The notes under the pieces: generated by a model
Told to the model about the DNA's origin: nothing
The model's database searches: none
The model's input: only the letters and a program-made list of their open reading frames with translations
Shown: piece after piece, positions 19,958-46,176 of the stretch
Position numbering within the stretch: the first letter of the stretch is position 1
Layout of the letters: every line of letters begins with the position of its first letter
Made by a program: the position numbers and the translations under genes
Sequence record: PZ445407.1
From: a phage
Strand: one strand, 5' to 3'
Length of the DNA: 47,731 nt

Positions 19958-20062
19958 TTAGAAACCGTTAAAATTAGAAGCCAGCATCAGAACCCAAACC
20001 AAGAAACCAGTTACAGCAGTGCCGGCGACCAGGGAGATTGAGTTGTTGATTAAGTTAGTCAT
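19958..20062 (-). CDS. small hydrophobic peptide (34 aa, MTNLINNSISLVAGTAVTGFLVWVLMLASNFNGF)
   Basis: Hand-translated; RBS gagggg; sits between palindrome promoter and Cor-like gene. Confidence 0.3.
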   Translation of the reverse strand: MTNLINNSISLVAGTAVTGFLVWVLMLASNFNGF

Positions 20063-20101
20063 TTTGTACCCCTCATTAAGTTGTTTCGTTTCGATGGAGT
20101 A

Positions 20102-20144
20102 ATAGTATCGCATCCTTGCGAGCAGTGTTTAGCAATTCGTGCTA
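20102..20144 (-). promoter_or_regulatory. palindrome-type promoter on minus strand for small peptide and Cor-like operon
   Basis: Reverse complement reads TAGCA cgaat TGCTA + 22 bp + TACTAT + leader TACTCCATCGAAACGAAAC. Confidence 0.5.
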
Positions 20145-20200
20145 TTGCATACACGTAACCGTTGTAACTCGATGTATACAATCTCATCCGCGAAAAATGA

Positions 20201-20300
20201 TATACGCCCTGTTACGCCAATTTACGCATTAGTTACATTAAAATATCTATATATATCAACCTTTTACTCTTATTATTATTATTATATATATTACTGTGTA
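20201..20300. repeat. iteron/AT-rich repeat element copy A (TTACGC-like repeats, ATATCTATATATATCAACCTTTTA core, (TTA)5 microsatellite)
   Basis: ~80-85% identical by eye to copy B; in divergent intergenic region. Confidence 0.6.
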
Positions 20301-20526
20301 TATCATGTAACTACTTCTATAGAGCGTTCCGGTTATAATTTTAATATCATGTGGATTTATACAGTATTGCGCGGTAGCTATAACAATGCACCATCAGCGA
20401 TAAACGGTATACACGATATACACACTAGTTACATTGAGCTATAGCTGGGCTGAGGTGCTAAAAGCCGTAACCAATGGCAATGCCTACACGCAATTACAAA
20501 GATTCACGCGTAAGTTTGAATCAACG

Positions 20527-20570
20527 ATTGGCAAAACCAATTGGACTGGCTACGGTGCCGAATATATAGT
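20527..20570 (+). promoter_or_regulatory. promoter with variant palindrome ATTGG-N5-CCAAT, 23 bp, -10 TATAGT
   Basis: Same geometry and leader as family but different half-site. Confidence 0.4.
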
Positions 20571-20607
20571 TAAATCATCGAAAGCAATCAACCAGAGAGA
20601 TACAGAA

Positions 20608-20802
20608 ATGACCTACTACATTATCAAAGAGAAAAACAACGCACTTTTCGGCGATTGCTATTTTGGTGGCCCTGCTGGATACACCACAAATAAGAGCGAA
20701 GCTGACCGATTCGAGACCAAAGAAGAAGCCCGAGATGTGCTGACCGGGTACTTCACTGAAGAAGATTTGAAGTCTGTTAAAGTGGTTAAGATCAAGGGGT
20801 GA
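20608..20802 (+). CDS. hypothetical protein (64 aa; track ORF 20434..20802 probably over-extended)
   Basis: ATG 20608 sits behind a promoter/leader of the conserved type located inside the track ORF. Confidence 0.35.
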   Translation: MTYYIIKEKNNALFGDCYFGGPAGYTTNKSEADRFETKEEARDVLTGYFTEEDLKSVKVVKIKG

Positions 20803-20805
20803 GTT

Positions 20806-21771
20806 ATGAGCTTTAAGGTTTTTACGCGAGAGGAGCTAAGTAACGAGGCCTATCACGCTGAGACTGAACACATCTCCGGTAGCTCGCTTGTTGAGATTAT
20901 CCAGGGCTCACCAGCTAAGTGGAAGTTCAAGCAACGAAATAATGATAGCAAGGCGCTTAAGTTTGGAACCTTAAGCCACACTATGATTTTGGAACAAGAT
21001 GTATTCGATAAAGAATACCTTCGCGCAACAGACCTTGATGCAATCGAGGGATTAATTACAAGCCAGGCTGGATTGTCGGCAGCGCTTAAAAAAGTTGGTG
21101 TAGCTGGAGCGTCTGGGAAAGGATATGTCGAACTCATAGAGATGATGTATCGATCTGGTGAGGATTGGCCTGTTAAGTGGCTAATTGAGCAGCAGGAGAG
21201 CGCACAGGCGCTTGTGGAGGGTAAGGAGCTTGTTAGCGCAGCGGACTACGATAAAGTTATGGCAATGCGTGAAGTTCTTTGCAATATTCCTGCTTACGAT
21301 AAGATTGTTAACAGTGAAACGGCGCAGAAAGAGTTATCAATATTTGGTGAGATTCTCGGGGTTGGCGTGAAGATTCGAATTGACCATGTTGACGTTGTTG
21401 ATGGCGTAGTTCGCATCACAGATTACAAAACGACAGCAGACGCAAGCCCTGAAGGATTTGGTAAGTCGGCATTCTCACACGGATACCTTGCAAAAATGAC
21501 CCTTCAGAGAGATCTGTTTGTGAAGGCGTTTAACGAGAAGCGCAAGGTTGTCGTGGGATTGCTAGCGCAGGAGAAGGTAGAGCCATATCTCCCAATGCTT
21601 TACACCTTAACGGATGAGCAACTTCGAATCGGCCGCTTGCAGTACCTTGAGGCGCTAGCCACTTATAAGAAGTGCAAGGAGCTTGATATTTGGCCTGGCT
21701 ACTCGAATGGCATTACAGAGCAAGAGCTATTGGTTCCTGAGTGGGCTCTAAAACAATACAAAGAAATCTAA
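20806..21771 (+). CDS. PD-(D/E)XK 5'-3' exonuclease (YqaJ/RecE-like recombination exonuclease)
   Basis: D...D/E...K arrangement (IDHVD..ITDYKT); adjacent to Erf-like gene. Confidence 0.6.
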   Translation: MSFKVFTREELSNEAYHAETEHISGSSLVEIIQGSPAKWKFKQRNNDSKALKFGTLSHTMILEQDVFDKEYLRATDLDAIEGLITSQAGLSAALKKVGVAGASGKGYVELIEMMYRSGEDWPVKWLIEQQESAQALVEGKELVSAADYDKVMAMREVLCNIPAYDKIVNSETAQKELSIFGEILGVGVKIRIDHVDVVDGVVRITDYKTTADASPEGFGKSAFSHGYLAKMTLQRDLFVKAFNEKRKVVVGLLAQEKVEPYLPMLYTLTDEQLRIGRLQYLEALATYKKCKELDIWPGYSNGITEQELLVPEWALKQYKEI

Positions 21772-21772
21772 A

Positions 21773-21815
21773 CAGCACAAATTGCTAAAGACAAAATTAA
21801 AAGGTGGGGTATGAT
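21773..21815 (+). promoter_or_regulatory. palindrome-type promoter (CAGCA-N5-TGCTA, 22 bp, TATGAT) for erf
   Basis: Direct read; leader TACCCCATCAAAAACGAACGAGG. Confidence 0.5.
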
Positions 21816-21844
21816 TACCCCATCAAAAACGAACGAGGTTAAAG

Positions 21845-22495
21845 ATGCAAATTTCAGAATCATGCAAGTCAATTCTAAACGCACTGCACACTGCTAAATC
21901 GCTATTTGCGAAGGCTGAAAAGTCTAAGCAGAACTCGCACCTAAAAAACAAGTACGCAACCCTTGAAGACGTACTAGCGGCTGTTGAGCCTGGTTTAGAT
22001 GAGTGCGGTCTTGTTATGTTCCAGAGCGTTCTTGATGATGAGCAAACGAATCGCATGAAGGTTGAGACAAAGCTGTTCCATGCTGAGTCAGGGGAGTGGG
22101 TTAGCTTCTTAATGATAGTCCCAATTAGCAAGAATGATGCTCAGGGTTATGGCTCCGCATTAACATACGCTCGACGTTACGGAATCACAGCGGCATTGGG
22201 ACTTAGTCAAGCAGATGATGATGGCAATCTCGCAGCGAAAGGTGTTAAGGATTTCAAACGGGAACTTGAGAAGTGCAACACATTAGATGAGCTTCGTAAT
22301 GTCTGGAAGGATGCCAAGCAGTCACTTGACGCGGCAGGATGGAAGGTCTTTGAGCCTCATATTATTGAGCGCAAGGCAGAGATTGAAGCAAATGCAGCAA
22401 CTGGCTTCAATCCAGCAACACCAAAGAAAGTTGCAGAAAAAAGTAGTATTGATGAAAAGCCTGAAGCAGAATCACAACAAATCGACACATTCTAA
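21845..22495 (+). CDS. erf: Erf-family single-strand annealing protein
   Basis: Motif GSALTYARRYGI characteristic of ERF family; next to exonuclease. Confidence 0.6.
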   Translation: MQISESCKSILNALHTAKSLFAKAEKSKQNSHLKNKYATLEDVLAAVEPGLDECGLVMFQSVLDDEQTNRMKVETKLFHAESGEWVSFLMIVPISKNDAQGYGSALTYARRYGITAALGLSQADDDGNLAAKGVKDFKRELEKCNTLDELRNVWKDAKQSLDAAGWKVFEPHIIERKAEIEANAATGFNPATPKKVAEKSSIDEKPEAESQQIDTF

Positions 22496-22537
22496 ATTTA
22501 ACGGGGCTGCGGCCCCAACAAGCAGAGAGATAAAAAC

Positions 22538-22957
22538 ATGCACGTAATTACTGGTCAGATTCGCCGCGCTCCATTCACCAAAGAAGGACAGAACGCCAAT
22601 GGTAGCTGGAAAATGTTTGCGGTTGATTTGAGTGAGCGATACAAGGATAAGGATGGTAATAATCATTACACCAACTATCGCGCAGTTTTCTTCGCTAAAG
22701 AGTCAATGTTAGATTGGTATAATGAAGCATTTCAAGAGGGTAAAATTGTTAGCGTTAGCGCTGAAAGCCTGGCTGTTGATGTTCGGGATAAAGATGGCAA
22801 GACTTACGTAACGGTCAATATGAACAACCCTAGACTTGAGTTTAGCCAACGTGGTGATTCAGCACCACAACAGAAGGCGCAAAAGCAACCACAGCAACAG
22901 CAGAATCAACAGCAACCGCAACAGCAACAACAGTTTAATGAAGACATTCCATTCTAA
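22538..22957 (+). CDS. SSB-like single-stranded DNA-binding protein (putative)
   Basis: Gln/Pro-rich linker and C-terminal DIPF tip like bacterial SSB acidic tails. Confidence 0.45.
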   Translation: MHVITGQIRRAPFTKEGQNANGSWKMFAVDLSERYKDKDGNNHYTNYRAVFFAKESMLDWYNEAFQEGKIVSVSAESLAVDVRDKDGKTYVTVNMNNPRLEFSQRGDSAPQQKAQKQPQQQQNQQQPQQQQQFNEDIPF

Positions 22958-22963
22958 ATATAA

Positions 22964-22990
22964 AGCCCCTTTCGGGGCTTTTTTTATTTT
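22964..22990. terminator. bidirectional terminator between SSB-like gene and convergent tail fiber
   Basis: agcccc-tttc-ggggct + TTTTTTT. Confidence 0.6.
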
Positions 22991-29431: not shown

Positions 29432-29471
29432 CACTAATTGCTAAAGAGATTTCGCAGGGATGCGATATAGT
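29429..29471 (+). promoter_or_regulatory. palindrome-type promoter (TAGCA-N5-TGCTA, 22 bp, TATAGT)
   Basis: Direct read; palindrome includes stop codon of upstream gene. Confidence 0.55.
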
Positions 29472-29507
29472 TACTCCATCGAAACGAAACACAGAGAGAG
29501 AAACAAA

Positions 29508-29702
29508 ATGGCTACTATCTTTACTGGTAAAATCTACGAATCACGCAAGACTGGTTATGAATATGAATTAGTAATCACCGCTGAGGGTTATGTTCTTGAC
29601 GATGGTGAGGGTTATGCTTTCGAAGTAAGCCCAACTTACAAGGATGATTTGGAGACTGTTAAAAACGCATTTGGCGAAAAATTTGATGAGGTATCAGAAT
29701 GA
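29508..29702 (+). CDS. hypothetical early protein
   Basis: ATG 29508 behind conserved promoter and leader. Confidence 0.4.
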   Translation: MATIFTGKIYESRKTGYEYELVITAEGYVLDDGEGYAFEVSPTYKDDLETVKNAFGEKFDEVSE

Positions 29703-30715: not shown

Positions 30716-30967
30716 ATGTTGGGTTTAGATTTTCAGCCAGAGCATTACGATTTGGTTCATGGGCAAAGCGGTGCGAAGTTTAGGGCGATACCTATTGCTG
30801 ACTGGTTCCCTCCTGACTATGTGGATGTGAACGCAAAAACTAAAGACGGAAAGTGGGTGCAGATTTACTACTCTCCAGCGTGCGGAAACCTTTGCATGAC
30901 CGACCTTGAGCGAAAGTTAGCAATTAGTGCGGAAGTGATAGGCTACTGGTTGAAAGAGGTTGAATGA
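30716..30967 (+). CDS. hypothetical protein
   Basis: ORF track. Confidence 0.4.
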   Translation: MLGLDFQPEHYDLVHGQSGAKFRAIPIADWFPPDYVDVNAKTKDGKWVQIYYSPACGNLCMTDLERKLAISAEVIGYWLKEVE

Positions 30968-31038
30968 CGAGCCTAATACTAGTAGCATCGTTACCACTGT
31001 TTAGCTTTACTATCTTATACTTTATCGCAATGAATTAA
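30964..31038 (+). CDS. hydrophobic micro-ORF (24 aa, MTSLILVASLPLFSFTILYFIAMN)
   Basis: Hand-translated; ATGA overlap with upstream stop. Confidence 0.2.
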   Translation: MTSLILVASLPLFSFTILYFIAMN

Positions 31039-31050: not shown

Positions 31051-32181
31051 ATGGCAACTGCAAAAATTACCAACGAAGAACTGCGCGAAGAACTGGCTAA
31101 TGGCATGACCAACAAAGCTATCGCAGAGAAGTACGGAATGAATATTCGCAATGTCGAATTGCGTCGTAGTAAATTAGCTAAGAGTGGAGAGTTGCACGGA
31201 AACCCAGGTATCAAGAAGTTAGTTCCTGACGGTTATTTGGTCAAAGGTACGTCAACCATGATTGATGCGGATGGCAACGAGAAGATTCGCTGGGTTAAGA
31301 CCTCAATTGATAATGAGCGACTTGAGGTTTTAATGGAGCAAGCTCGAGAAGCATTCTGCTCTGATTTGCCAAAAGCAGATGCGGTAATCCACTCAGGTAA
31401 TGAGGTCAACTCTGAGTTAATGACTCTTTACCCTATTTTCGATATCCATATTGGCATGATGGCGCATCGCCATGAGTCCGGCGAAAATTATGACACGAAC
31501 ACCGCTGAGAAATTAATGGGATCATATTTTGACCATGCAATTTCCGTATCACCAGCCTCAGAGAAAGCCGTGATTTTAGTTGGTGGTGATTTCCTTCACT
31601 CCGATGGGTTGGAATCGGTAACTCCAGCAAGCGGACACTGCCTTGATCAAGATAGTCGATATGCCAAGTTAGTTTATGTTGCTATTCGCTCGATTCGTTG
31701 CGCCGTAGAGAAGATGCTTAAGAAGCATAAGAATGTCGAGATTCAGATTATAGAGGGCAATCACGACCAGAGTGGTATGATTTGGCTCCGTGCGGCAATG
31801 GCTGCATTTTATGAAAACGAGAATCGCGTGTTTGTTGATACCAGTCCGGCAATCATGCACAAGACGCGATTTGGCTCAACATTACTTGGTTACACTCACG
31901 GTCACACCATGAAGAAAGCCGAGGGTAGACTTGCAGCAATGGCTACCGACTACCGCAAAGACTTTGGTGAATGTGAGTTTGTTTACTGCCACTCCGGCCA
32001 TTTCCATCACGCAACTGTTACAGAGTGCACTCTTGGGATTGACGAGGTTCACCCAGCGCTGGCTAGTAAGGATGCGTATGCAGCTCGAGGAGGGTGGCGC
32101 TCATATCGCCAAGCTGCCGCAATCATCTATCACAAGGAGTTCGGTGAGGTTGGTAGGCATATTTATCGCCCAGGCATGTAA
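31051..32181 (+). CDS. calcineurin-like metallophosphoesterase with N-terminal HTH-like domain
   Basis: Motifs DIHIG..H, GGDFLH, GNHD, GHxH; N-terminal TNKAIAEKYGMNIRNVELRRSKL. Confidence 0.55.
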   Translation: MATAKITNEELREELANGMTNKAIAEKYGMNIRNVELRRSKLAKSGELHGNPGIKKLVPDGYLVKGTSTMIDADGNEKIRWVKTSIDNERLEVLMEQAREAFCSDLPKADAVIHSGNEVNSELMTLYPIFDIHIGMMAHRHESGENYDTNTAEKLMGSYFDHAISVSPASEKAVILVGGDFLHSDGLESVTPASGHCLDQDSRYAKLVYVAIRSIRCAVEKMLKKHKNVEIQIIEGNHDQSGMIWLRAAMAAFYENENRVFVDTSPAIMHKTRFGSTLLGYTHGHTMKKAEGRLAAMATDYRKDFGECEFVYCHSGHFHHATVTECTLGIDEVHPALASKDAYAARGGWRSYRQAAAIIYHKEFGEVGRHIYRPGM

Positions 32182-32266: not shown

Positions 32267-32461
32267 ATGACTAAGATGATTTATTGCACCAAGAACAACT
32301 CCAAGACTCTGCCGTTTACTGTCAACCAGCCGTACAATGCGGAGTACCAGGGTGATGGATATTTCAAGATTTACGGCGATGACATGACGTGGATTTTAGC
32401 GCCGATTGATGGTTCGCTGGTTGAATTTATTATCGCTGACTAGCGCAGCAAAAACATAGCG
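32267..32461 (+). CDS. hypothetical small protein (64 aa)
   Basis: Hand-translated behind conserved promoter/leader; not in supplied ORF track, so coordinates need checking. Confidence 0.25.
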
Positions 32462-32500: not shown

Positions 32501-32573
32501 TCTTTTCCGAGCAGGTCTAATGTATCATTCTTTTACTAACTTAAGCATTGACAAATAAATAAAGGTGGATCAC

Positions 32574-32789
32574 ATGAGGGAAGTCATTAACGCCGCTACA
32601 GCATCAACTGGCGGCGCTGCTTTTACTGGTGCGGCAACTGGTCAAATGACTATAGCAATAATCAGCCTTATCGCTCTGATTATTTTTGGTGCCTGGGGAG
32701 CGTACTGGAAGTTCAAGGATAGCCAGGCTATTCGCCGAGCGCTTGAATCAGGGGATCTAAAAACAGCACTAAAGATAAGGAGCAAGTAA
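32574..32789 (+). CDS. holin (pinholin-like, two TMDs)
   Basis: Gly/Ala-rich TMD1 plus hydrophobic TMD2, charged C-terminus; immediately upstream of SAR endolysin. Confidence 0.55.
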   Translation: MREVINAATASTGGAAFTGAATGQMTIAIISLIALIIFGAWGAYWKFKDSQAIRRALESGDLKTALKIRSK

Positions 32790-33275
32790 ATGAAGCAGAA
32801 GATAGCCATTACCGCGGCTACGGCTGCGGCTATATACATCGCGGCGCCGCTTATTGAACTTGTGGAGGGTGTAGAGAATAAGCCATACATGGACATTGCC
32901 GGAATTCCTACGGTCTGCGCAGGTATCACTGGGCCTGACGTGACATGGGGTAAAACTTACAGTAACAGAGAGTGTCGCAACCTTCTTGAGAAGCACATCC
33001 AGATTCATGGAAAGCATGTTCAGAATGCCGTTACCTATCCAATCGCACCTCAGACAAGGGCGGCTTTAATCAGCTTCAGTTATAATGTTGGTGGCTCAGC
33101 AATGAGGAATTCTACCGCTGTGAGACTAATTAACCAGGGTAAGATTGAGCAGGGTTGTAAGGCTCTCGGGATGTGGAATAAAGCTACCGTTAATGGCAGG
33201 AAGGTTGTGGTTAAGGGATTGGTAAACCGCCGGAATCAGGAGATTAAATTATGTTTAAGTGGATTGCAGCGTTAG
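32790..33275 (+). CDS. SAR endolysin (T4-lysozyme-type)
   Basis: N-terminal Ala/Gly-rich signal-anchor-release segment followed by E...D...T catalytic spacing (ELVEGVENKPYMDIAGIPTVCAGIT). Confidence 0.7.
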   Translation: MKQKIAITAATAAAIYIAAPLIELVEGVENKPYMDIAGIPTVCAGITGPDVTWGKTYSNRECRNLLEKHIQIHGKHVQNAVTYPIAPQTRAALISFSYNVGGSAMRNSTAVRLINQGKIEQGCKALGMWNKATVNGRKVVVKGLVNRRNQEIKLCLSGLQR

Positions 33276-33640
33276 TAATGTGCGTAGCTTTGTCTGGATG
33301 TTCAGCAACTGATGCACTGACCGGATTGATTGGCAGCAAGCCGGAGGTTACAGCTCAGGCCGGGGCAGAGAATAACAAGGTTGGAGTTGGGTTAACGAAT
33401 AAGGTCGACTCTAGTAACTCCAGTGATGCCACTGTTAAGGATTCCAGCGTAGGCTCTCTGGATAGCTCGAGTGGGAAAAAGACTGCTGACAATTCGATTA
33501 AGGCCTCAACAATTACCGCCGAAAAGATTGAAATTACCAATAACGAATCATCCGCGCTTCCGTGGGTTGGAACAGGAGCAATGGGTTTGTTGGTTTTAAT
33601 TCTCATGGCATTAATCTTAAGACGTAAAAAAGCCTCCTAA
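33251..33640 (+). CDS. unimolecular spanin (u-spanin-like)
   Basis: N-terminal lipobox LSGC plus C-terminal TMD followed by RRKK; overlaps endolysin 3' end. Confidence 0.6.
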   Translation: MFKWIAALVMCVALSGCSATDALTGLIGSKPEVTAQAGAENNKVGVGLTNKVDSSNSSDATVKDSSVGSLDSSSGKKTADNSIKASTITAEKIEITNNESSALPWVGTGAMGLLVLILMALILRRKKAS

Positions 33641-33992: not shown

Positions 33993-34079
33993 TTAACTCC
34001 TGAGTACTGCCAAAACAAATAGAAGCATCGAAATTGTTACAACAACACCAAGTATTATCAATAGTATCGATTCAATCAT
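33993..34079 (-). CDS. hydrophobic micro-ORF (28 aa, MIESILLIILGVVVTISMLLFVLAVLRS)
   Basis: Hand-translated; RBS gggtga; tightly packed between two minus-strand genes. Confidence 0.25.
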   Translation of the reverse strand: MIESILLIILGVVVTISMLLFVLAVLRS

Positions 34080-34082: not shown

Positions 34083-35666
34083 TCACCCCAGCAATCGTGG
34101 ATTAATGTAAACTTTATCACCAATCAGGCACGTGTAGTTTTTCTCATCAAGCATTGGCAGCAGGTGATCTTTAATCTTAGTCATCACTCCAGCCTGAGCT
34201 TCGAATGGTTTGACCTTACGAGCAGCTTCATATAGAGAACGAACGCCTACTACGCCTTTCCCGTTCCTGCCTTGTTTAATCAGAATATCAATCAGCTTAT
34301 TCATCTCGGCATTGTCTCCAGCGTGACCAGCGGCGTTGGCAGATGACAGATAAGTCTTGCTAAGTTCCTGGAACATAATTACAGCCTCCTGCATTGTGTC
34401 CAACTCAATCTCCCTGGACTTCTGTGGACTCCCGCCGTTAGGGTTGAACCAGTTGCGAATAGTGTGAAGAACCGCAGCGATTCTGATAGCCTGCTTATCG
34501 AACTTGCCTAACGCACCGCGCAACATTGTGTGTGAATACTTCCCGCCGTCCGCGAGGTGAGGCTCCATTTCCTGACGCGCTCGGTTGAGATATTTCATTG
34601 CTGAGTTGCTCACTGTCAACTTAACATCTTGCTCATTCATGATTTCGTGAACCAGTCGGAAGTAATCAGCCTTTAGTCCACCATCAATTGGCTCGTATGT
34701 TGATTCACCATTTTCATCAACGAATACACGCTCGCCCAGGAATGACTTTTCACGTACAAGCAGGAAACGTTCCGACACACCAATACCACGCGCACCAGCA
34801 TTCATGATCGCGTTTATTGTTTCATCCTGCGCAATTACTGAGATGCAACCCATAGCAAAGAAACTCATGTTGTTCTCTGCATTCGCGCGAGCGATAGATA
34901 CGTGCCCACCATCCCATGCTTTAAGAACAAGTTCGCTGTTCGTTTTCTTAGAGCCATCACCATAGGTCATGCCAAGCAGTGAGTTAACACTCGTTGCCTC
35001 ATCCGAGATAACCGCGAAGTTACCCTGGCGGTTGTTTATTCGTGCCAGGCCTTCAGGTGTGGTGTCTGATACCGGGAATACGATATCGCACAACTTCTCC
35101 AGTTTTTCCTCTAGCTCCTCCTTTTCCTCAAATAGGGAGGCCATCTCTGAAGGAGATTTTTCCTGCTTCATCTCTTTGGATAATGCGGATAGTTTTGCCA
35201 TAATCTTTTTGCGCTCACGCTTGCGAACTTCATTCAGTCGCTCGGTCTCAGCAATCATTGGAGCAATCGAAAGTGAGTTGATGGCTGATTTACCAGTTGA
35301 TGGCGGCTGACTGGTCACGACGTAAAGCGAAGTCGGTTGCTGAGTTCCATGATACTCGACAGTAAAGCGGCCCAGCATCGCAGCAGAAATACACCCCAGG
35401 AAGTGCATATAGGCTGAAGACTCTGGGAACTGAACGGAGCGGGCAATGTTGGCAGAAAGTTTACCAACAACATCAATATCATTACCGAGTGAGATTACGG
35501 GGTACTTGTCATTAGCGGAATCAATCTCTACGGGCGCCTTCCAGAACGATTGAGACTGTCGATAGCCATTGGCATTAATAGCGACTCGCAGGGGTGGGAG
35601 GTTGTCTGCGGCAGCAATTGCCATAACCTGTTCAACAGATAGCTTATCTTCGTTGAAATCAAACAT
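34083..35666 (-). CDS. P-loop NTPase (putative replication-associated ATPase)
   Basis: Walker A-like QPPSTGKS and Walker B-like AVISDEAT; N- and C-terminal regions shared with 38508..39047. Confidence 0.55.
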   Translation of the reverse strand: MFDFNEDKLSVEQVMAIAAADNLPPLRVAINANGYRQSQSFWKAPVEIDSANDKYPVISLGNDIDVVGKLSANIARSVQFPESSAYMHFLGCISAAMLGRFTVEYHGTQQPTSLYVVTSQPPSTGKSAINSLSIAPMIAETERLNEVRKRERKKIMAKLSALSKEMKQEKSPSEMASLFEEKEELEEKLEKLCDIVFPVSDTTPEGLARINNRQGNFAVISDEATSVNSLLGMTYGDGSKKTNSELVLKAWDGGHVSIARANAENNMSFFAMGCISVIAQDETINAIMNAGARGIGVSERFLLVREKSFLGERVFVDENGESTYEPIDGGLKADYFRLVHEIMNEQDVKLTVSNSAMKYLNRARQEMEPHLADGGKYSHTMLRGALGKFDKQAIRIAAVLHTIRNWFNPNGGSPQKSREIELDTMQEAVIMFQELSKTYLSSANAAGHAGDNAEMNKLIDILIKQGRNGKGVVGVRSLYEAARKVKPFEAQAGVMTKIKDHLLPMLDEKNYTCLIGDKVYINPRLLG

Positions 35667-37313: not shown

Positions 37314-37357
37314 ACTATACCCTCGCCAGACCATAACGTCATTAACAAAAAGTGCTA
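37314..37357 (-). promoter_or_regulatory. palindrome-type promoter on minus strand for the 33655..37286 accessory operon
   Basis: Reverse complement: TAGCA ctttt TGTTA + ~22 bp + TATAGT + leader ...CATCAACAACGAGGGGG. Confidence 0.5.
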
Positions 37358-37986: not shown

Positions 37987-38508
37987 ATGTCGAATCGAAT
38001 TCAGCCAGTAAGCCTTGGTGATGTTATCCGCTACATGGCCAAGCAGGCACTTAAGACTGACAACCGAACTTTTCATGTCCCAATCCATCTTATAGCTCGC
38101 CAGGTGTACGGACTAACGTCTGATGATATGGGCCGAATCAGCACTGAAGATCTCGAGACTGGTGGCAAATACAGCTTGGCAAAGTTGAAAGCGTCATATG
38201 TCTCTAACACAGTTGCAAGGATGCCGGAGATTCAGGAGGCGAACGTTCGGGCCAAGCTATCAATCAAGGACGGAGACTTCGGGGATGATGTTGATGTTCG
38301 ATGCGCATACATCACCTTGGTAGATGGGGCAATTCAGAAAGGAAAGAGAGTGAAGGCCAACAACCAGGTTGCAGAGAAGGCGGTGAACGACTTTAAGGAT
38401 AGAATCCTCAAGCTAATGCCATCCGTGACTGAGTTTGAAGGAGGCGAGATCACTGGAGCCATTAAGGCAATTAAGATGTACCAGGAAATGATTAAGGAGA
38501 CAAAATAA
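37987..38508 (+). CDS. hypothetical protein
   Basis: Behind canonical sigma70-like promoter. Confidence 0.45.
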   Translation: MSNRIQPVSLGDVIRYMAKQALKTDNRTFHVPIHLIARQVYGLTSDDMGRISTEDLETGGKYSLAKLKASYVSNTVARMPEIQEANVRAKLSIKDGDFGDDVDVRCAYITLVDGAIQKGKRVKANNQVAEKAVNDFKDRILKLMPSVTEFEGGEITGAIKAIKMYQEMIKETK

Positions 38509-39047
38509 TGGGGATGTTTGATTTTACCGAAGAGAAGCTGACAGATGAGCAGATTATGCAGATTGCTGCGCGGGATGGACTTCCTCCGCTACGAGTTGCA
38601 ATCAATGCCAATGGATATCGCCAGTCTCAATCATTCTGGTGTAGTGTTGAGGAGTTGCTCTGCGCAAAGCTCGACAGCAAGTCGGGCGTAGTTGTGCTAA
38701 AAATTCACGACCAGAGCAGGAACGGTAAAGGGGTTGTAGGAATTAGATCAACATATGAAGCGCTGAGAAAGGTCAAGCCATTTGCCGGACTCAACGGAGT
38801 CATGCATGACCTGAAAAATAACATCCTGCCATCGCTACAGGACGTAGGAATCATCTGCCTCATTGGAGATAAAATTTACGTGCATCCATACATCATTGGC
38901 ATGCATGCGATAGAAGTTGAAGAGTGGTGCGACCCATGTCCTGCTGTTGAGCAAGATACTAGACTACCATACCACTTGCGTTATAGTGAGGAAGAGGTGG
39001 AGATGGCGATGGACTTGTATCGTAGATGGAATGCTGTTGGGAAATGA
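38508..39047 (+). CDS. internally deleted paralog of the 34083..35666 ATPase (N- and C-terminal modules only)
   Basis: Shares LPPLRVAINANGYRQSQSFW and C-terminal RNGKGVVG.R..YEA.RKVKPF...CLIGDK.Y with the 527-aa protein; lacks the P-loop core. Confidence 0.5.
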   Translation: MGMFDFTEEKLTDEQIMQIAARDGLPPLRVAINANGYRQSQSFWCSVEELLCAKLDSKSGVVVLKIHDQSRNGKGVVGIRSTYEALRKVKPFAGLNGVMHDLKNNILPSLQDVGIICLIGDKIYVHPYIIGMHAIEVEEWCDPCPAVEQDTRLPYHLRYSEEEVEMAMDLYRRWNAVGK

Positions 39048-40274: not shown

Positions 40275-40814
40275 ATGAATCAGATGTACACCATGATTAA
40301 GCAACACCTGAACACCGAGGCAATCAACAAGCCAGTCTACGTGTTTGACTACGACGGCACGCTGTCGGACGGATCGCATCGCTTGCATAAGTTGCCGACA
40401 AAGGATTTACACCTCACTGAGTCATGGTCTGAATTCAATCGACTGTCAGAATATGATGAACCTATCGAATCAACCATTCAGGTGATGAATAGCCTGTACG
40501 ACTCTGGCGCATACATCATCATCCTAACCGGGCGGTCAGACGAGGTGTGTGAAATTTCGACTCAGTGGCTTCATGATGCTAAAGCAAAATATAACGTAAT
40601 GGTCATGCGCCAGGCTGATGACAACAGAAAGGATACAATCATCAAAGAGGAGTTCTTGCGCTACATTGGCTTGCATCGAATTACGGCAGCATTCGATGAT
40701 AGCCCTAACGTGGTTGCGCACTTCCGAAGCCTGGGCATCACTACCTATCAGGTTTGCGACTATGGCGATAAGCTACACGCTGGAGTCGGATCGCATGGCG
40801 TTCATCATAAGTGA
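40275..40814 (+). CDS. HAD-superfamily phosphatase / nucleotidase (putative)
   Basis: HAD motif I VFDYDGTL and later D-rich motifs. Confidence 0.5.
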   Translation: MNQMYTMIKQHLNTEAINKPVYVFDYDGTLSDGSHRLHKLPTKDLHLTESWSEFNRLSEYDEPIESTIQVMNSLYDSGAYIIILTGRSDEVCEISTQWLHDAKAKYNVMVMRQADDNRKDTIIKEEFLRYIGLHRITAAFDDSPNVVAHFRSLGITTYQVCDYGDKLHAGVGSHGVHHK

Positions 40815-41610: not shown

Positions 41611-41643
41611 TTAGTTCACACCAAACGAGAGGAAGTAGAAGAA

Positions 41644-41835: not shown

Positions 41836-41836
41836 G

Positions 41837-42055: not shown

Positions 42056-42189
42056 TTTACGTTCACACTTACTACACTGCAAAGTTTAATAGCGTGAAGA
42101 ATGTTAGTGTTCACGAAAGCTACGAGAGCGCAAAAGCTCAATGGTTGGTTCTCGGCGGTGATATTAATTCATATAGAGTCGATGAATAG
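42052..42189 (+). CDS. hypothetical small protein (45 aa)
   Basis: Hand-translated; ATGA overlap. Confidence 0.25.
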   Translation: MIYVHTYYTAKFNSVKNVSVHESYESAKAQWLVLGGDINSYRVDE

Positions 42190-42228
42190 CAAGAATTGCT
42201 AAAACAGCATTGGGGTAATTTGTTATAG
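42186..42228 (+). promoter_or_regulatory. palindrome-type promoter (TAGCA-N5-TGCTA, 22 bp, TATAGT)
   Basis: Direct read; leader TACCCCATAGAAACGAATGAGG. Confidence 0.55.
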
Positions 42229-42259
42229 TTACCCCATAGAAACGAATGAGGAAGAAGAG

Positions 42260-42472
42260 ATGAAAATTGAAATTATCGACGTGGATTACCAGGTGGACCA
42301 GGAAATTCCTACTCTGCGCGACTGTGGTTTCCGGGTTGGAGATATAGTAGAGGTGATTGGTTACTACGATGATGGCGACATTTCAATCCCTGCAATCCGT
42401 GAGACTGAGTTCGCCAATATCGGAGATGAAATCAGTATTTGCGAGCATGAATACAGGGGGGTAGAGAAATGA
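42260..42472 (+). CDS. hypothetical protein
   Basis: Behind conserved promoter/leader. Confidence 0.4.
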   Translation: MKIEIIDVDYQVDQEIPTLRDCGFRVGDIVEVIGYYDDGDISIPAIRETEFANIGDEISICEHEYRGVEK

Positions 42473-42651
42473 TTAAGTTCGAGCAAAGCGAACCTAAGCT
42501 ACAGGCTAACCACTTCGATGGCTACTCAACATTCATCATTGCCCAGGCGTACGGAATGCGTGAAGACCCACAGGTCCACACAATCCACTTAACCGAAGAG
42601 CAGGCTAGAGAGTTGGCTTACGAAATTCTAGAGCAATTGAATAAGATTTAA
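42469..42651 (+). CDS. small acidic protein (paralog family with 39135 and 39456)
   Basis: C-terminal EQARELAYEILEQL. Confidence 0.4.
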   Translation: MIKFEQSEPKLQANHFDGYSTFIIAQAYGMREDPQVHTIHLTEEQARELAYEILEQLNKI

Positions 42652-42700
42652 CGCGCCTAAAACGCACTATGACGAAAGATAATTTAAGTAAGGTGATTCT

Positions 42701-42871
42701 ATGATTAAAGCTGTTTTTGTTGCTGAGGATGACGATTATCTAGGCCTAAAGACACATGACGTGATCTATGTTGAACCATTAAAAAATGGTGATGGCTATA
42801 TCTACACTGATAAATTTGGCGTGCGTCTTTTTATTGAGCGATGGGAAATTGAGGAGATTAGTGGTGAGTAA
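42701..42871 (+). CDS. hypothetical small protein (56 aa)
   Basis: Hand-translated; RBS aaggtg. Confidence 0.3.
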   Translation: MIKAVFVAEDDDYLGLKTHDVIYVEPLKNGDGYIYTDKFGVRLFIERWEIEEISGE

Positions 42872-42986
42872 CGAAAGCCCCGTAGAGTGGTGCAAGAGAA
42901 TGCAGGACGAGGCCAAGACGAGCGAAGAGGCAATGGCTTACTACGAGCTTGCGAAAATGTGGATGGAGCGGGAGAAGAAGGAATGA
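42864..42986 (+). CDS. hypothetical small protein (GTG start)
   Basis: RBS gaggag; overlaps neighbours. Confidence 0.2.
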   Translation: MSNESPVEWCKRMQDEAKTSEEAMAYYELAKMWMEREKKE

Positions 42987-43126
42987 GCTTCACTGAATAT
43001 GTTATCGCATGTGAGAGAATTGTGTTTGACATGAAAACCTTTCACTGGTTCATCATTAAGGATTTAATCAAGCCTTATAAGCAAGGCGTTACGCCAGAAC
43101 AGTTTGTTAAGTCATTCTATAAATAA
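42983..43126 (+). CDS. hypothetical small protein (47 aa)
   Basis: ATGA overlap. Confidence 0.25.
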   Translation: MSFTEYVIACERIVFDMKTFHWFIIKDLIKPYKQGVTPEQFVKSFYK

Positions 43127-43152
43127 TCTTATCAGAAAGAGAGAGAAACAAA

Positions 43153-43350
43153 ATGTGGATCAACATTAAAGAAGAGATGCCTGGCAGCGAGGATGTTTTG
43201 GTTTATTGCTCAGACACAAGAGAGCAGATGGTTGGGTTCCACAAGGGGAGAGGTCTTTTTCAGTTCTTTTTCATGAATGGGGTGGAGGGAGTTTGCAAAC
43301 CAACGCATTGGATGCCGCTACCAGAAGGTCCAGATAGCACGAATTGCTAA
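43153..43350 (+). CDS. hypothetical protein
   Basis: ORF track, RBS agagagag. Confidence 0.4.
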   Translation: MWINIKEEMPGSEDVLVYCSDTREQMVGFHKGRGLFQFFFMNGVEGVCKPTHWMPLPEGPDSTNC

Positions 43351-43377
43351 ACACGCTCGCCACGGATGGCATATAAT
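43335..43377 (+). promoter_or_regulatory. palindrome-type promoter (TAGCA-N5-TGCTA, 22 bp, TATAAT)
   Basis: Direct read; near-duplicate of junction copy. Confidence 0.55.
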
Positions 43378-43407
43378 TACCCCATCAACACAACGAGAGA
43401 TTGAGAG

Positions 43408-43647
43408 ATGTTTGGATTAAATGAAGCGATGTTTAATGCTGTAAAGCGCCAGGCTAAAAAGCTCAACGATAAGTATGAGACACTAAGCAAACTGGACCGC
43501 AAGAATGACAAGCTAGTTGCTGGAGTTATAACTGAGATTTGGCAGCCCGTTTCTACGGTAATCAGCAGAGATCGCTTTGTGTGGGTAGCTGGTTACTTGC
43601 GAGGCCGGGTTGGTCACGACGAGAATGGGAATAGCCTTTATGAGTAA
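43408..43647 (+). CDS. hypothetical protein
   Basis: Behind conserved promoter/leader. Confidence 0.4.
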   Translation: MFGLNEAMFNAVKRQAKKLNDKYETLSKLDRKNDKLVAGVITEIWQPVSTVISRDRFVWVAGYLRGRVGHDENGNSLYE

Positions 43648-43747
43648 GTTTATTGATTGTGTTATTTACGCGTGGTGCTTGGCGCTGGCTTCAGCCTCGG
43701 TTATGTTAATAATTGCTGCGATTATGATGATGGGTGGGTATGTATGA
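43640..43747 (+). CDS. hydrophobic micro-ORF (35 aa, MSKFIDCVIYAWCLALASASVMLIIAAIMMMGGYV)
   Basis: Hand-translated; overlaps both neighbours. Confidence 0.3.
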   Translation: MSKFIDCVIYAWCLALASASVMLIIAAIMMMGGYV

Positions 43748-43932
43748 GTAATTGCAACAAGCACCACTATTACTACGCATACGAGTCGAAATTGGAGAAG
43801 TCTGACATTGATGGGATTAGATATGGATGGGCTGACGCAACGGCGCCATGCATCTTCGTAGGAATGAAAATGGCATTCTACGTTTGCAGTAAGTGCCACA
43901 ACATACTTATCACCGAGAGGCTGAGTAAATGA
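43744..43932 (+). CDS. zinc-ribbon-like protein (paralog 1; C.KHHYYY...C.KCH)
   Basis: Cys/His spacing shared with 43994..44230. Confidence 0.4.
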   Translation: MSNCNKHHYYYAYESKLEKSDIDGIRYGWADATAPCIFVGMKMAFYVCSKCHNILITERLSK

Positions 43933-43997
43933 GTGAACTAACAATCTGGTTTATCGCAGGGCTGGTTACTTGGGCTTACTTTATGGAGGCAGCATGA
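43929..43997 (+). CDS. hydrophobic micro-ORF (22 aa, MSELTIWFIAGLVTWAYFMEAA)
   Basis: Hand-translated; ATGA overlaps at both ends. Confidence 0.3.
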   Translation: MSELTIWFIAGLVTWAYFMEAA

Positions 43998-44230
43998 GAA
44001 CATTGAGGCAGATTTTAAACGGATGCAAGAAGCATCATTACACTTACTTTCGTGACATTAAATGGTTCGAGGATGCTAATCGTTTAGATGGCTACAAGAC
44101 AAAGTTAATATGCAAGAAGTGCCACCATGTTGAGAACAGTAAGGTAGATATGATGATTTGCCGTAGCACACTCGACGAAGTTCATTATGCAAAGGCCAGA
44201 AGGCTCAAAAAACTAGTTGCCAGACCGTAA
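43994..44230 (+). CDS. zinc-ribbon-like protein (paralog 2)
   Basis: CKKHHYTY...CKKCH pattern; RBS ggagg. Confidence 0.4.
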   Translation: MRTLRQILNGCKKHHYTYFRDIKWFEDANRLDGYKTKLICKKCHHVENSKVDMMICRSTLDEVHYAKARRLKKLVARP

Positions 44231-44244
44231 TTGTTAAAAAGAAC

Positions 44245-44273
44245 TTGCACCACTGACCGGAATTATATAATAT
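44245..44273 (+). promoter_or_regulatory. sigma70-like promoter (-35 TTGCAC, 17-bp spacer, -10 TAATAT) driving non-coding region and tRNA
   Basis: Hexamers read directly from sequence. Confidence 0.4.
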
Positions 44274-44279
44274 TAACCA

Positions 44280-44640
44280 CGTAGACAAACGAGGCCACTA
44301 AGTGGCAACGGCGCACGGAGCGCACTACGCGGTAAGTCCGCTGCTCATTAAGTAGCGTATGCGGCGCATCTGGTCCATGAGGATAAGGCGTAAACCTCAA
44401 CCAACTTCCCAGTATGGGCTTTATTCCCTTAGGGACTTGAAGACCTAGCGCAAATAGGCCGACATGGTCCAAGTCGAAAAAACTGACCAGACCTGAGCAC
44501 GTCATTAAAAGAGCTTTCTGTTAATCGGTCGTTTCAGGCGACCCCGGAGCCGTAACCGGGATTTATATGGGTGGCATTTATGTCATCTTGTAAATTGGTC
44601 GTAAAGGCGACCCCGGAATCATAACCGGGACTCATTCAAA
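44280..44640 (+). ncRNA. candidate structured non-coding RNA / tRNA precursor leader with duplicated double-hairpin unit
   Basis: No convincing ORF; GC-rich; two ~34-nt direct repeats (44527..44562 and 44596..44630) each forming two 5-bp hairpins. Confidence 0.3.
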
Positions 44641-44718
44641 GCTCTGCTAGCTCAATTGGATAGCAGCAACGACCTTCTAAGTCGTAGGTTACTGGTTCGA
44701 ATCCAGTGCGGAGCGCCA
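44641..44718 (+). tRNA. tRNA-Arg (anticodon UCU), CCA encoded
   Basis: Acceptor stem GCTCTGC/GCGGAGC, anticodon stem ACGAC/GTCGT with loop CTTCTAA, canonical T-arm GGTTCGAATCC, 3' GCCA. Confidence 0.8.
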
Positions 44719-44745
44719 AATTAAACCAATAATCCTGGGGGATTT

Positions 44746-44928
44746 ATGAAAACTGTAACATTCATCGTAAAAGATTCAGGGACGGGAACCGTTCAGAAGT
44801 TTAACGCGAAATTAACCTACAACAAAGGTGGAAGTAAAGAAGTTAGAGGCTCACTGGGCGGCGTGATGGTTGAGGCTCGACTCCCGATTATCTACCCTGA
44901 TGACGAGCGCCGCAATGTGGGACGTTAA
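44746..44928 (+). CDS. hypothetical protein
   Basis: ORF track; RBS gggg. Confidence 0.35.
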   Translation: MKTVTFIVKDSGTGTVQKFNAKLTYNKGGSKEVRGSLGGVMVEARLPIIYPDDERRNVGR

Positions 44929-45097
44929 ACTTTCAATCAGACTAATGGGCCGAAGTTGCAAGAATTGCACTCAAGATTATATCGCGTCAGTTGCCGCAAT
45001 CAGCGCTGAGGATGCGGTAGCGAAAGTAAAAGAGTTGTCAGGCGCTGATCCAGACACTCACAAATTCCTGGTAGCTTACGTTCGTGAGCGAAAGTAA
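44915..45097 (+). CDS. hypothetical protein
   Basis: ATG 44915 in frame of track ORF 44870..45097. Confidence 0.35.
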   Translation: MWDVKLSIRLMGRSCKNCTQDYIASVAAISAEDAVAKVKELSGADPDTHKFLVAYVRERK

Positions 45098-45141
45098 AAA
45101 GTGTTATACCCTCGTTAAGTTCCGTTTCTCTCGTTGTTTTT

Positions 45142-45165
45142 AGCCCTCGCTTGAGGGCTTTTTTT
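45142..45165 (+). terminator. rho-independent terminator
   Basis: agccctc-gctt-gagggct + TTTTTTT. Confidence 0.6.
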
Positions 45166-45175
45166 CGCCCGCATG

Positions 45176-45204
45176 TTGACAACAATATATAGGTGCATTA
45201 GTAT
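45176..45204 (+). promoter_or_regulatory. sigma70-like promoter (-35 TTGACA, 17 bp, -10 TAGTAT)
   Basis: Hexamers read directly. Confidence 0.45.
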
Positions 45205-45245
45205 TAACTCATCGGGGCGACCCACTAACCAGAAGGAGATTCAAA

Positions 45246-45482
45246 ATGATTACATTAAAAGCAATTCACAAAGACGGTAGCGAGCAGGTTTTTGAAGTTA
45301 AGAATTTTGGCTACAGAGCTACGCAGAACCGTATTGATGCTGTTGATTGCGATTGCCAACCTTTCAGTATTTACCTTAATGATGACTCAGTTGCTATTGT
45401 GTACGCAATGAACTCAAGAGGGGCAACTATTGGTAAATACTCTCTTATTGAGTCGGTAGGACTACGAGATTACATATCTTAA
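45246..45482 (+). CDS. hypothetical protein
   Basis: Behind canonical promoter, RBS aaggag; terminator follows. Confidence 0.45.
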   Translation: MITLKAIHKDGSEQVFEVKNFGYRATQNRIDAVDCDCQPFSIYLNDDSVAIVYAMNSRGATIGKYSLIESVGLRDYIS

Positions 45483-45486
45483 ATTA

Positions 45487-45510
45487 GAGCCCCTTAATTG
45501 GGGCTTTTTT
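45487..45510 (+). terminator. rho-independent terminator before terminase genes
   Basis: agcccc-ttaatt-ggggct + TTTTTT. Confidence 0.55.
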
Positions 45511-45555
45511 ACGCCTGTAACATGGTATAATATAACATCAACAAAGGAGGATTAA

Positions 45556-46062
45556 ATGAGCAAAGCAGCATTAAAGATGGGTGAGGGAAATTTCAAGGCG
45601 CTTTACAACAAGAAGTATGGCGATATTGCGATGGTGGCTATTAACCGCAAGTACACGCCTGAGGAAGTTTTCGATTTCGCTGTTCGATACTTCTCCTGGG
45701 CTGAGACTGAGGCAATCAAAGCAATTGAGACGGCGGCATTCCAGGGTGTGGTTAGTGAGAGCCTTGTGCACAAGCCTCGAGTATTCACATTAACCGGGCT
45801 GGCGCTCTTTATGGGTGTTAATATCAATAGATTCGCACGCTGGCGTACTGAGGCTGGTTACTCTGATGTGATGGAATTCATTGATAACGTAATCTACGAG
45901 CAGAAATACCAGCTTGGCGTTGCTGGTATCATCAACTCCACCATCGTGGGGAAAGAATTGGGAATTGATAAGCCGCAGGAGATTACCATCAGCAACAACT
46001 CCACAGCCAACGACGTTGATAGCATGAAGGAAGCGCTGGAATCTGTTATTAGTAAGCTGTGA
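45556..46062 (+). CDS. terminase small subunit (putative)
   Basis: ~168 aa gene directly upstream of large terminase; RBS aaggagg. Confidence 0.55.
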   Translation: MSKAALKMGEGNFKALYNKKYGDIAMVAINRKYTPEEVFDFAVRYFSWAETEAIKAIETAAFQGVVSESLVHKPRVFTLTGLALFMGVNINRFARWRTEAGYSDVMEFIDNVIYEQKYQLGVAGIINSTIVGKELGIDKPQEITISNNSTANDVDSMKEALESVISKL

Positions 46063-46080
46063 TAAAACGAGGGTATAACA

Positions 46081-46176
46081 ATGAAAGGCTTGATTAAACT
46101 ATTCATGATGTATTATCTATTAACTAGCGTATCTCTTTGTGTCTTTATGTTGGTGGTTAAATTATGGCTAATTTAG
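46081..46176 (+). CDS. hydrophobic micro-ORF (31 aa) overlapping terminase large start
   Basis: Hand-translated; RBS gaggg. Confidence 0.2.
   Translation: MKGLIKLFMMYYLLTSVSLCVFMLVVKLWLI

Follow-up and report, generated by a model that had tools for sequence, protein, structure and literature searches.

Short hydrophobic open reading frames in the operons of the T1-like coliphage JulesPiccard as probable genes for single-span membrane peptides

Bacterial small single-span membrane proteins include KdpF (29 amino acids, aa), MgtS (31 aa), CydX (37 aa) and AcrZ (49 aa), and the type I toxin peptides Ibs, ShoB, TisB and Hok/Ldr are likewise very short, at 19 - 50 aa, and hydrophobic over nearly their entire length. 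In phages, the term 'morons', attributed to Hendrix and colleagues, reportedly denotes accessory genes that lie between two genes adjacent in relatives; classical morons carry their own promoter and terminator. In bacteria, small hydrophobic proteins missed by annotation form a recognised class, and conserved hydrophobic intergenic micro-open reading frames (micro-ORFs) have been catalogued in Enterobacteriaceae (PMC11188072). About half of the genes of T1-like phages, mostly small ones, are without known function (PMC13164509). Here we analyse micro-ORFs in the sequence record PZ445407.1, a stretch of 47,731 nucleotides (nt) referred to as the window, which an exact protein match assigns to Escherichia phage JulesPiccard (BASEL collection, Bas03). 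This T1-like coliphage belongs to the Drexlerviridae (Braunvirinae) and shares about 85% identity, over its central 16 kb, with SU57, RobRod40 and Rtp. Four of the micro-ORFs, ORF1 to ORF4, and a fifth at position 43640 are, in the reading that we favour with reasonable though not full confidence, separate small protein-coding genes, each specifying a peptide of 24 - 35 residues with one transmembrane (TM) helix, placed within operons in which ribosomes would be handed on from or to the neighbouring genes.

A first-pass annotation, made from the letters of the window, had proposed ORF1-4 as unlisted hydrophobic micro-ORFs of 24 - 34 aa with plausible ribosome-binding sites and start/stop coupling to their neighbours. 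Their translations were reproduced exactly (Table 1); all four begin with ATG, carry a Shine-Dalgarno (SD)-like motif 4 - 8 nt before it and are closely packed against adjacent genes. The motif GAGGGG lies 7 nt upstream of ORF1, and 11 nt separate the ORF1 stop from the cor ATG; ORF2, with the SD AAGAGG, overlaps the stop of the upstream gene in an ATGA and is followed after 12 nt by the exonuclease ATG; ORF3 starts 3 nt past the helicase stop and ends 2 nt ahead of the next ATG; ORF4, with the SD GAGGG, starts 18 nt past the TerS stop and overlaps the start of the large terminase gene TerL (ATG 46165) by 12 nt. Two of the four proved to be listed already: by exact-sequence look-up, used throughout to read the GenBank annotation status of JulesPiccard ORFs, ORF4 is bas03_0002 and ORF1 is bas03_0032 with a longer start. 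Tight spacing holds throughout, as proposed, but the common coupling pattern does not represent one system; at least three situations are present, namely a conserved family that has been shuffled between sites (ORF1), a family-wide core micro-gene (ORF2) and accessory inserts at gene junctions (ORF3, ORF4 and the 43640 ORF). Overall, the earlier interpretation is partly supported. The reading frame, whose loss in relatives had been named as grounds for its rejection, is retained wherever the DNA occurs. Relatives are given by name or, where needed, by locus label (L001, Rtp; L006, phiEB49; L031, CEB_EC3a; L051, AHP24).

Table 1. Micro-ORFs of the window and the features that accompany them (SD, Shine-Dalgarno sequence).
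Feature	Position	Strand	Product or sequence	Remarks
ORF1	19958-20062	-	34 aa, MTNLINNSISLVAGTAVTGFLVWVLMLASNFNGF	
ORF2	30964-31038	+	24 aa, MTSLILVASLPLFSFTILYFIAMN	
ORF3	33993-34079	-	28 aa, MIESILLIILGVVVTISMLLFVLAVLRS	
ORF4	46081-46176	+	31 aa, MKGLIKLFMMYYLLTSVSLCVFMLVVKLWLI	
Fifth micro-ORF	43640-43747	+	35 aa, hydrophobic	GenBank bas03_0083; not listed in the first-pass annotation
Displaced TerL start	46165-46200	+	MANLVWEEMT...	GGTGG SD from the 3' end of the ORF4 insert; from alignment with the TerL N-termini of relatives
Exonuclease	31051-32181	+	DNA-repair exonuclease / metallophosphoesterase	homologue of T1 gp16; annotated in relatives; invariably follows ORF2
cor	19726-19946	-	Cor superinfection-exclusion lipoprotein, MKKIITIAALLLSGC...	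phrog_1119, E = 1.3e-28; coupled, 3' of ORF1
Promoter-like element and 5' leader	20082-20144	-	TAGCAC..TTGCTAAA..TGCGATACTAT..CCATCGAAACGAAACA	conserved; upstream of ORF1

Small ORFs of 20 - 59 aa were collected in six frames and scored as strongly hydrophobic when a 17-residue Kyte-Doolittle window reached at least 2.0; the designation of ORF1-4 as single TM peptides refers to their hydrophobic stretches of 20 - 22 residues and not to the output of a TM predictor. In this census, ORF1-4 are the sole strongly hydrophobic small ORFs with ATG and SD that lie at least 75% within intergenic gaps on the local coding strand, and they make up four of the six such gap ORFs with a length of up to 34 aa. 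Their maximum 15-residue Kyte-Doolittle window ranges from 2.1 to 3.05, T is concentrated at codon position 2 (0.45 - 0.70), and the five alternative frames are rich in stops and non-hydrophobic. Because AT-rich intergenic DNA favours hydrophobic ORFs (PMC11188072), it is this frame-specific comparison that matters: in composition-preserving shuffles, an open and equally hydrophobic frame arose with a probability of 0.02, 0.0015, 0.0007 and 0.005 for ORF1, ORF2, ORF3 and ORF4, respectively. Base composition does not account for the frame-specific hydrophobicity of ORF1-4. No Rfam family overlaps ORF1-4; the whole-window yield of Rfam and ARAGORN is a single tRNA-Arg (anticodon TCT, 44641-44718, +), and SU57 has one at the equivalent position.

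ORF2 was the most informative case. An ATG-initiated hydrophobic ORF of 22 - 26 codons lies directly upstream of the exonuclease gene in 16 of 19 IMG/VR loci, even where the DNA is heavily diverged, and likewise in the more distant Tunavirus Lg3, the Tempevirinae PeterMerian and grams, and Klebsiella phage Roth08; in T1 it occupies positions 40740-40808 of NC_005833. Searches by tblastn with the individual variants returned 90 records for Braunvirinae, 29 for Rogunavirinae, 62 for Tunavirus, T1 among them, 138 for Tempevirinae and 348 for Webervirus, a sum of 667 (about 650 genomes) that includes some double counting and duplicates between RefSeq and GenBank. Each of the five sampled lineages of Drexlerviridae thus has ORF2 beside the exonuclease gene; SETP3 (Jerseyvirus) and Gluttony (Dhillonvirus), taken as outgroups, have the homologous exonuclease gene with no ORF2 upstream. 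The other neighbour varies: Braunvirinae and T1 have a coupled gene there, Rogunavirinae a promoter/leader and mar001J1 an HNH endonuclease gene. No terminator was found between ORF2 and its neighbours. The alignment preserves M1, a basic residue or Trp at positions 2 - 3, usually a Pro in the middle of the helix, and a near-invariant Tyr 4 - 6 residues from the C-terminus. Between lineages, pS (synonymous differences per site) is saturated at 0.6 - 1.0 and pN (the non-synonymous equivalent) reaches 0.4 - 0.58, in protein-guided alignments that bias pN/pS downward across subfamilies; codon position 2 is the least variable. Kept open and hydrophobic at the same site across subfamilies, the frame gives firm support to ORF2 as a putative coding sequence. 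No annotation of it exists in the records of T1, Rtp, SU57, RobRod40, JeanPiccard, PeterMerian, Lg3, grams or Roth08, and a look-up of eleven variants among about 15 billion called proteins found none of them.

A read-through fusion between ORF2 and the exonuclease, which share a frame in the window at a distance of 87 nt, was excluded because the in-frame spacing is not conserved (11, 10 and 14 nt in Rtp, L003 and L005). The gene AHP24_45 (L051, 211-330; 39 aa, hydrophilic) was also considered as an annotation of the Rogue1-type ORF2 and rejected, as it is in a different reading frame. It starts within the conserved leader element, out of frame with the hydrophobic ORF2 variant, and is probably a mis-call. 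Our best guess for ORF2 is a functional peptide whose translation would also deliver ribosomes to the exonuclease start.

ORF1 comprises a single hydrophobic span, ISLVAGTAVTGFLVWVLMLA, and a conserved C-terminal SNF(N/K)GF tail. Its homologues were found by tblastn in 37 phage records, from phages of Escherichia, Shigella, Klebsiella, Enterobacter and Citrobacter, and in a nine-member alignment W23, L27, A28, N30, F31, G33 and F34 are invariant, with the C-terminal motif LA(S/G)NF(K/N)GF. In all pairwise comparisons the third codon position is the most and the second the least variable; pS is 0.4 - 0.86 and pN 0.18 - 0.48, so that pN amounts to about 0.35 - 0.5 of pS, and the invariant motif is spelled by differing synonymous codons among lineages. 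Judged by this synonymous skew and by the motif being maintained through different codons, ORF1 is a protein-coding gene and represents a conserved Drexlerviridae family under purifying selection; its coding nature is firmly supported. An exhaustive HMMER search with ORF1 gave two representative clusters only, so the family is either small or too short to detect, and an IMG/VR scan with the ORF1 alignment added just three loci. Relationship to a pinholin was dismissed, the match at the N-terminus (42% over 19 aa, E about 2) being insignificant, as was relationship to the signal peptide of rtp45, to which the likeness is confined to the common first five codons.

The gene is found in two genomic contexts. 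JulesPiccard has it at the head of a short ORF1-cor operon, with a bidirectional terminator at 19703-19720 by cor, and cor or another lipoprotein gene follows it also in RobRod40, whose cor homologue carries the Cor annotation, and in Sd1, Phagiculus and IME253. In BrunoManser, Klebsiella phage KL3, Enterobacter phage Ec_L1 and the metagenomic loci L013 and L045, it lies between the exonuclease and the DUF7244/SH3-holin-endolysin-spanin genes. Both contexts share one upstream leader, which also precedes the ORF1 homologues in Ec_L1 and L013 and rtp45 in Rtp; in Rtp, the leader and the first five codons (MTNLI) continue directly into the lipoprotein rtp45. This common leader and the fusion of MTNLI to rtp45 indicate that the cargo behind a conserved promoter/leader has been exchanged at the ORF1/cor/rtp45 locus. 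Within the window, the exact 20-nt leader core occurs at 20082-20101 (-) and again, in the same architecture, before an unrelated gene at 29472-29491 (+), with a chance expectation of 0. The 51-aa bas03_0032 starts at ATG 20113, inside the -10 region of the promoter element, and IME253 has no in-frame ATG upstream of MTNL; because of these two observations, the true product is read as the 34-aa peptide from ATG 20062 and not as the 51-aa form. The 34-aa form is annotated in TR3 and a 35-aa form in BrunoManser, and a protein homologue search with the 51-aa reading returned only JulesPiccard's own GenBank protein and one ENA cluster. As a best guess, ORF1 would be an envelope-acting accessory of the Cor superinfection-exclusion or lysis-associated module.

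The promoter-like sequence TAGCA(C/T)TTTTTG recurs in the window at 7730, 12122, 13383, 26928, 29429, 30270 and 32183 (+) and at 37346 (-), often followed by the leader motif ATCGAAACGA, and the leader core is additionally present at 7779 and 32232 (+). The TAGCA(C/T)TTTTTG element precedes different cargo genes in different Drexlerviridae and may serve as substrate for the exchange of cargo at the ORF1/cor/rtp45 locus. Besides bas03_0032, the 80-aa ORF 29460-29702 (+) has its start, at 29460, inside a -10 region (GGATGCGATA...); the real starts of these two genes are probably 20062 and 29508. The 58-aa gene 32267-32443 (+) matches DUF7244 (phrog_4788, PF23896), described in PMC13164509 as the 'standalone SH3' protein of the lysis module. 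The 85-bp gap before 32267 does not contain the ORF1-type peptide found ahead of DUF7244 in other genera.

ORF4, ORF3 and the 43640 ORF share a design that neither ORF1 nor ORF2 displays: they are patchily distributed and placed exactly at coupled junctions, between genes that adjoin each other in relatives; there they adopt the SD and start of the downstream gene and provide a new SD-stop-ATG at their 3' end. For ORF4, the reported overlap with the large terminase start stands and understates the arrangement. In relatives, GAGGGTATAACA-ATG is the TerL start itself; the window has an insertion of about 85 bp after that ATG, and ORF4 therefore uses the ancestral SD and start codon of TerL, whose own start is displaced (Table 1). 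The same displaced start is annotated in AugustePiccard, the only other phage with the ORF4 insert (87% aa identity; bas01_0002). The two copies differ at 10 nt, of which 5 are synonymous and 5 non-synonymous (pN/pS 0.26, P = 0.037), and the replacements are conservative (L to F, M to I, M to W, V to I); with this one homologue, the evidence that ORF4 is coding is only suggestive. No significant RNA structure masking the TerL start was found (z = +1.06). At the same TerS/TerL junction (window 46063-46164), Rtp (L001, 6388-6864) and L035 have HNH homing-endonuclease genes instead, and this boundary is thus a repeated insertion site. The idea that the ORF4 insert is a remnant of such an endonuclease gene was abandoned, since it has no sequence similarity to the HNH genes at the junction in Rtp and L035.

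ORF3 is carried on an 87-bp insert between the helicase stop and an MF(I/L)LD.. gene (T1 gp10-like), and in 13 of 16 related loci the insert is missing and the helicase stop runs straight into the MF(I/L)LD.. gene. It was found elsewhere in four T145P1 records, with 96% aa identity, and, with a strongly diverged ORF of 27 aa, in IME253, where the copy has only about 60% nt identity, against about 90% in the flanks, and maintains an open hydrophobic frame through an in-frame 3-nt indel. This pattern makes ORF3 a probable coding sequence; its pN/pS is 0.19, from 3 substitutions. At the same junction, phiEB49 (L006, about 8130-8320, -) has two different hydrophobic micro-ORFs in tandem, related to each other, MRKIESFVMYSLIPIHLISILFCILSLIHDFWGRL and MKNLKNFIVHSLIPFLFFTFVLVMTLIYG, which are split by a 26-nt duplicate of the helicase 3' end, unannotated and unique to this phage. 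The C-terminal part of the helicase (34083-35666), about 63 residues encoded by 34086-34270 (-), has a 57%-identical paralogous stretch at 38712-38900 (+), within a 179-aa ORF (38508-39047), and SU57 shows the same helicase-paralogue pattern at 1161-1385.

The 43640 ORF has a homologue in L031 (89% identical) and an empty site in L029, where the flanking genes overlap directly. This homologue was found locally; tblastn with the 43640 peptide against GenBank phages gave no match, possibly owing to the low-complexity filter. The insert is flanked by the direct repeat ATGAGTAA, and the ORF therefore opens with codons copied from the start of the gene that it displaced. In the true frame, 10 of 20.7 synonymous and 6 of 72.3 non-synonymous sites differ (pN/pS 0.17, P = 6e-4); the other frames have no such pattern. 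Pooling ORF3, ORF4 and the 43640 ORF gives 17 synonymous and 12 non-synonymous differences (pN/pS about 0.2, binomial P = 4.7e-5). No terminators flank the inserts, and promoter-like matches are at chance level. The junction inserts were probably gained by recombination at short SD-stop-ATG microhomologies. Right after the 43640 homologue, L031 (about 1724-1790) has a second hydrophobic micro-ORF of 21 aa, MSELTIWFIAGLITWAYFLIV, in an ATGA overlap. Downstream of the 43640 ORF start, a 91-aa ORF opens with TTG (43657-43932, +); ATG 43744 (MSNCNKHHYYY...) gives a 62-aa gene with the same start as the L029 homologue, which is more likely to be the actual gene.

Several observations weigh against reading the micro-ORFs as peptide genes. 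Hydrophobicity by itself is unremarkable, as 31 of the 556 small ORFs of the window pass the same hydropathy cut-off, and it is further favoured by AT-rich intergenic DNA (PMC11188072). The ORF1-4 peptides match no PHROG or Pfam family and are thus without a functional anchor. The separate selection estimates for ORF3 and ORF4 rest on the 3 and 10 substitutions given above, and an alternative frame of ORF4 gives a similar ratio, although it contains stops; the values for ORF2 across subfamilies carry the downward bias of their alignments. L010 has no canonical ORF2 start, and L013 and L020/21 have no ORF2 at all. In the close Rtp-like group, the variable sites of ORF2 number 3/8/10 by codon position and hardly any site of its 3' half varies, synonymous ones included, so that nucleotide constraint from the exonuclease initiation region acts too. 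Finally, the direct evidence concerns sequence, namely that the micro-ORFs exist and where, how they are conserved and substituted, how the inserts are built and which ORFs are annotated; translation and membrane localisation of the peptides are predicted.

The serious rival, especially for ORF2 and ORF4, is that the ORFs provide coupling and nothing else: their translation would bring ribosomes across a spacer to the start of the gene that follows (exonuclease, gp10-like gene or TerL), with a functionless peptide that is degraded or remains harmless in the membrane. Every ORF ends 0 - 15 nt from the next start or overlaps it, with the downstream SD in or near the last codons in all lineages, ORF4 is located on the former initiation site of TerL, and the nucleotide-level conservation of the ORF2 3' half fits as well. 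The stops thus lie within a few nt of the downstream start, as expected of spacer ORFs, but amino-acid constraint, which spacer ORFs should lack, is evident: hydrophobicity, with T at codon position 2, the near-invariant Tyr and the N-terminal basic residue or Trp are kept across subfamilies in which synonymous sites are saturated, the C-terminal motif of ORF1 is strongly conserved, and the inserts have a pN/pS of about 0.2. Moreover, most relatives are without ORF3, ORF4 and the 43640 ORF, and since the flanking genes couple directly there, no spacer is needed. On balance we regard this explanation as unlikely, though worth keeping in view. Considerably less probable is that the ORFs, mainly ORF4 and ORF3, are untranslated and unselected chance products of AT/T-rich spacers or insertion scars. 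That some might be chance ORFs had been allowed for from the start, and the number of equally hydrophobic small ORFs, the bias of AT-rich DNA, the absence of ORF3 and ORF4 from most relatives and the insertion-prone TerS/TerL junction are all compatible with it; wide conservation excludes it for ORF1 and ORF2. For ORF3 and ORF4 it is unlikely, given that frames are open wherever the DNA exists, including ORF3 at about 60% nt identity with its in-frame indel, that there is a synonymous excess, that shuffles are rarely open and equally hydrophobic, and that the ORF4 insert is unlike the HNH genes; having inherited a proven strong initiation site, ORF4 would hardly escape translation. The least probable explanation treats the frame as incidental and the conserved stretches as nucleic-acid elements that serve the downstream gene, whether as promoter, as U-rich translational enhancer or as RNA structure. 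Conserved promoter/leader repeats do occur in these intergenic regions, and the ORF2 3' half is nearly invariant among close relatives, but the promoter/leader lies upstream of ORF1 and not inside it, Rfam gave no match, no significant structure exists at ORF4/TerL, promoter-like matches in ORF2 and ORF3 are at chance level, and the ATG-initiated open hydrophobic frame of ORF2 persists among lineages with low DNA identity.

We therefore retain the reading as small membrane-peptide genes and infer translation and membrane insertion of the peptides; ORF1 may have a role in exclusion or lysis, and ORF2 may be linked to exonuclease function. Each micro-ORF would be translated via ribosomes passed from, or to, its operon neighbours, and the peptides would insert into the host inner membrane as single-span micro-proteins, where they may bind or perturb larger proteins of the membrane or envelope in the manner of bacterial small membrane proteins; ORF3, ORF4 and the 43640 ORF would be accessory cassettes that seize the downstream SD and start and re-supply a fresh SD-stop-ATG. 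A more speculative two-part proposal, improbable as a whole, is that the ORF2-family peptide is an obligate partner of T1 gp16-type exonucleases and that the junction inserts, including the tandem pairs of phiEB49 and CEB_EC3a, are a distinct class of promoter-less 'micro-morons'. If true, the peptide could, for example, act at the inner membrane by tethering or regulating the repair of phage DNA or the processing of host DNA, and obligate partnership would explain why ORF2 and the exonuclease are adjacent family-wide, whatever lies upstream; each insert would copy the start region of the gene behind it and spread in this way, so that coupled junctions would generally be open to the entry of new membrane peptides in virulent phages.

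The T1-like phages, notorious for contaminating laboratories, are also classic models, and a 22-26-codon gene fixed beside the exonuclease across the sampled subfamilies, yet unannotated in T1 and every other record inspected, is a concrete gap, easily testable in a reference genome. ORF1 would be an unrecognised component beside the Cor exclusion gene and, in other genera, beside lysis genes, and the architecture of the junction inserts suggests how virulent phages may gain membrane peptides without new promoters. Length cut-offs of 30 - 40 codons systematically hide conserved phage genes.

Among known systems, the Cor/Llp cassette of FhuA-dependent siphophages (PMC13164509) is the neighbour of ORF1, which is coupled and predicted to be co-transcribed with cor here and in RobRod40, Sd1, Phagiculus and IME253; unlike the Cor/Llp lipoproteins, ORF1 has neither Cys nor lipobox, no PHROG match and no relationship to Cor. 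The published cor cassette consists of an outer-membrane protein, a membrane-associated protein and Cor, and does not include ORF1; the same study describes the conserved Drexlerviridae block exonuclease-SH3-holin-endolysin-spanin without mention of the ORF1 or ORF2 peptides or of the word 'transmembrane' (PMC13164509). ORF2 adjoins the exonuclease at the 5' edge of this block, and the ORF1 homologues of BrunoManser, KL3, Ec_L1, L013 and L045 lie within it, between exonuclease and SH3. A holin or antiholin assignment is not indicated, as ORF1-4 are outside the lysis cassette (32565-33640) and have no Pfam or PHROG holin match; ORF1 homologues two genes upstream of a holin occur in other genera only. 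With type I toxins the peptides share their very short and almost entirely hydrophobic make-up, but no antisense RNA or Rfam family is present at the loci, there is no Pfam match, and the ORFs are embedded in phage operons and do not form stand-alone toxin-antitoxin loci. Like morons, ORF3, ORF4 and the 43640 ORF are patchily distributed between genes that abut in most relatives; unlike morons, they are without promoter or terminator of their own and share the translation signals of their neighbours. Because they seize an SD and start and re-supply a new one, they are translationally, not transcriptionally, autonomous. Closest are the bacterial small membrane proteins and the micro-ORFs of Enterobacteriaceae, with which the phage micro-ORFs share a length below 50 aa, one hydrophobic helix, an operonic position beside larger genes, omission from annotation and detection via purifying selection; they differ in being encoded by a virulent phage and in having no sequence relation, by Pfam or PHROG, to any named small protein. 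Start codons and ribosome-binding sites, spans of 20 - 22 residues, frame conservation and purifying selection, the last two clear for ORF1, ORF2 and the 43640 ORF, are all found here. The micro-ORFs thus add members to the recognised class of small membrane proteins, the most useful of them being the family-wide, unannotated ORF2.

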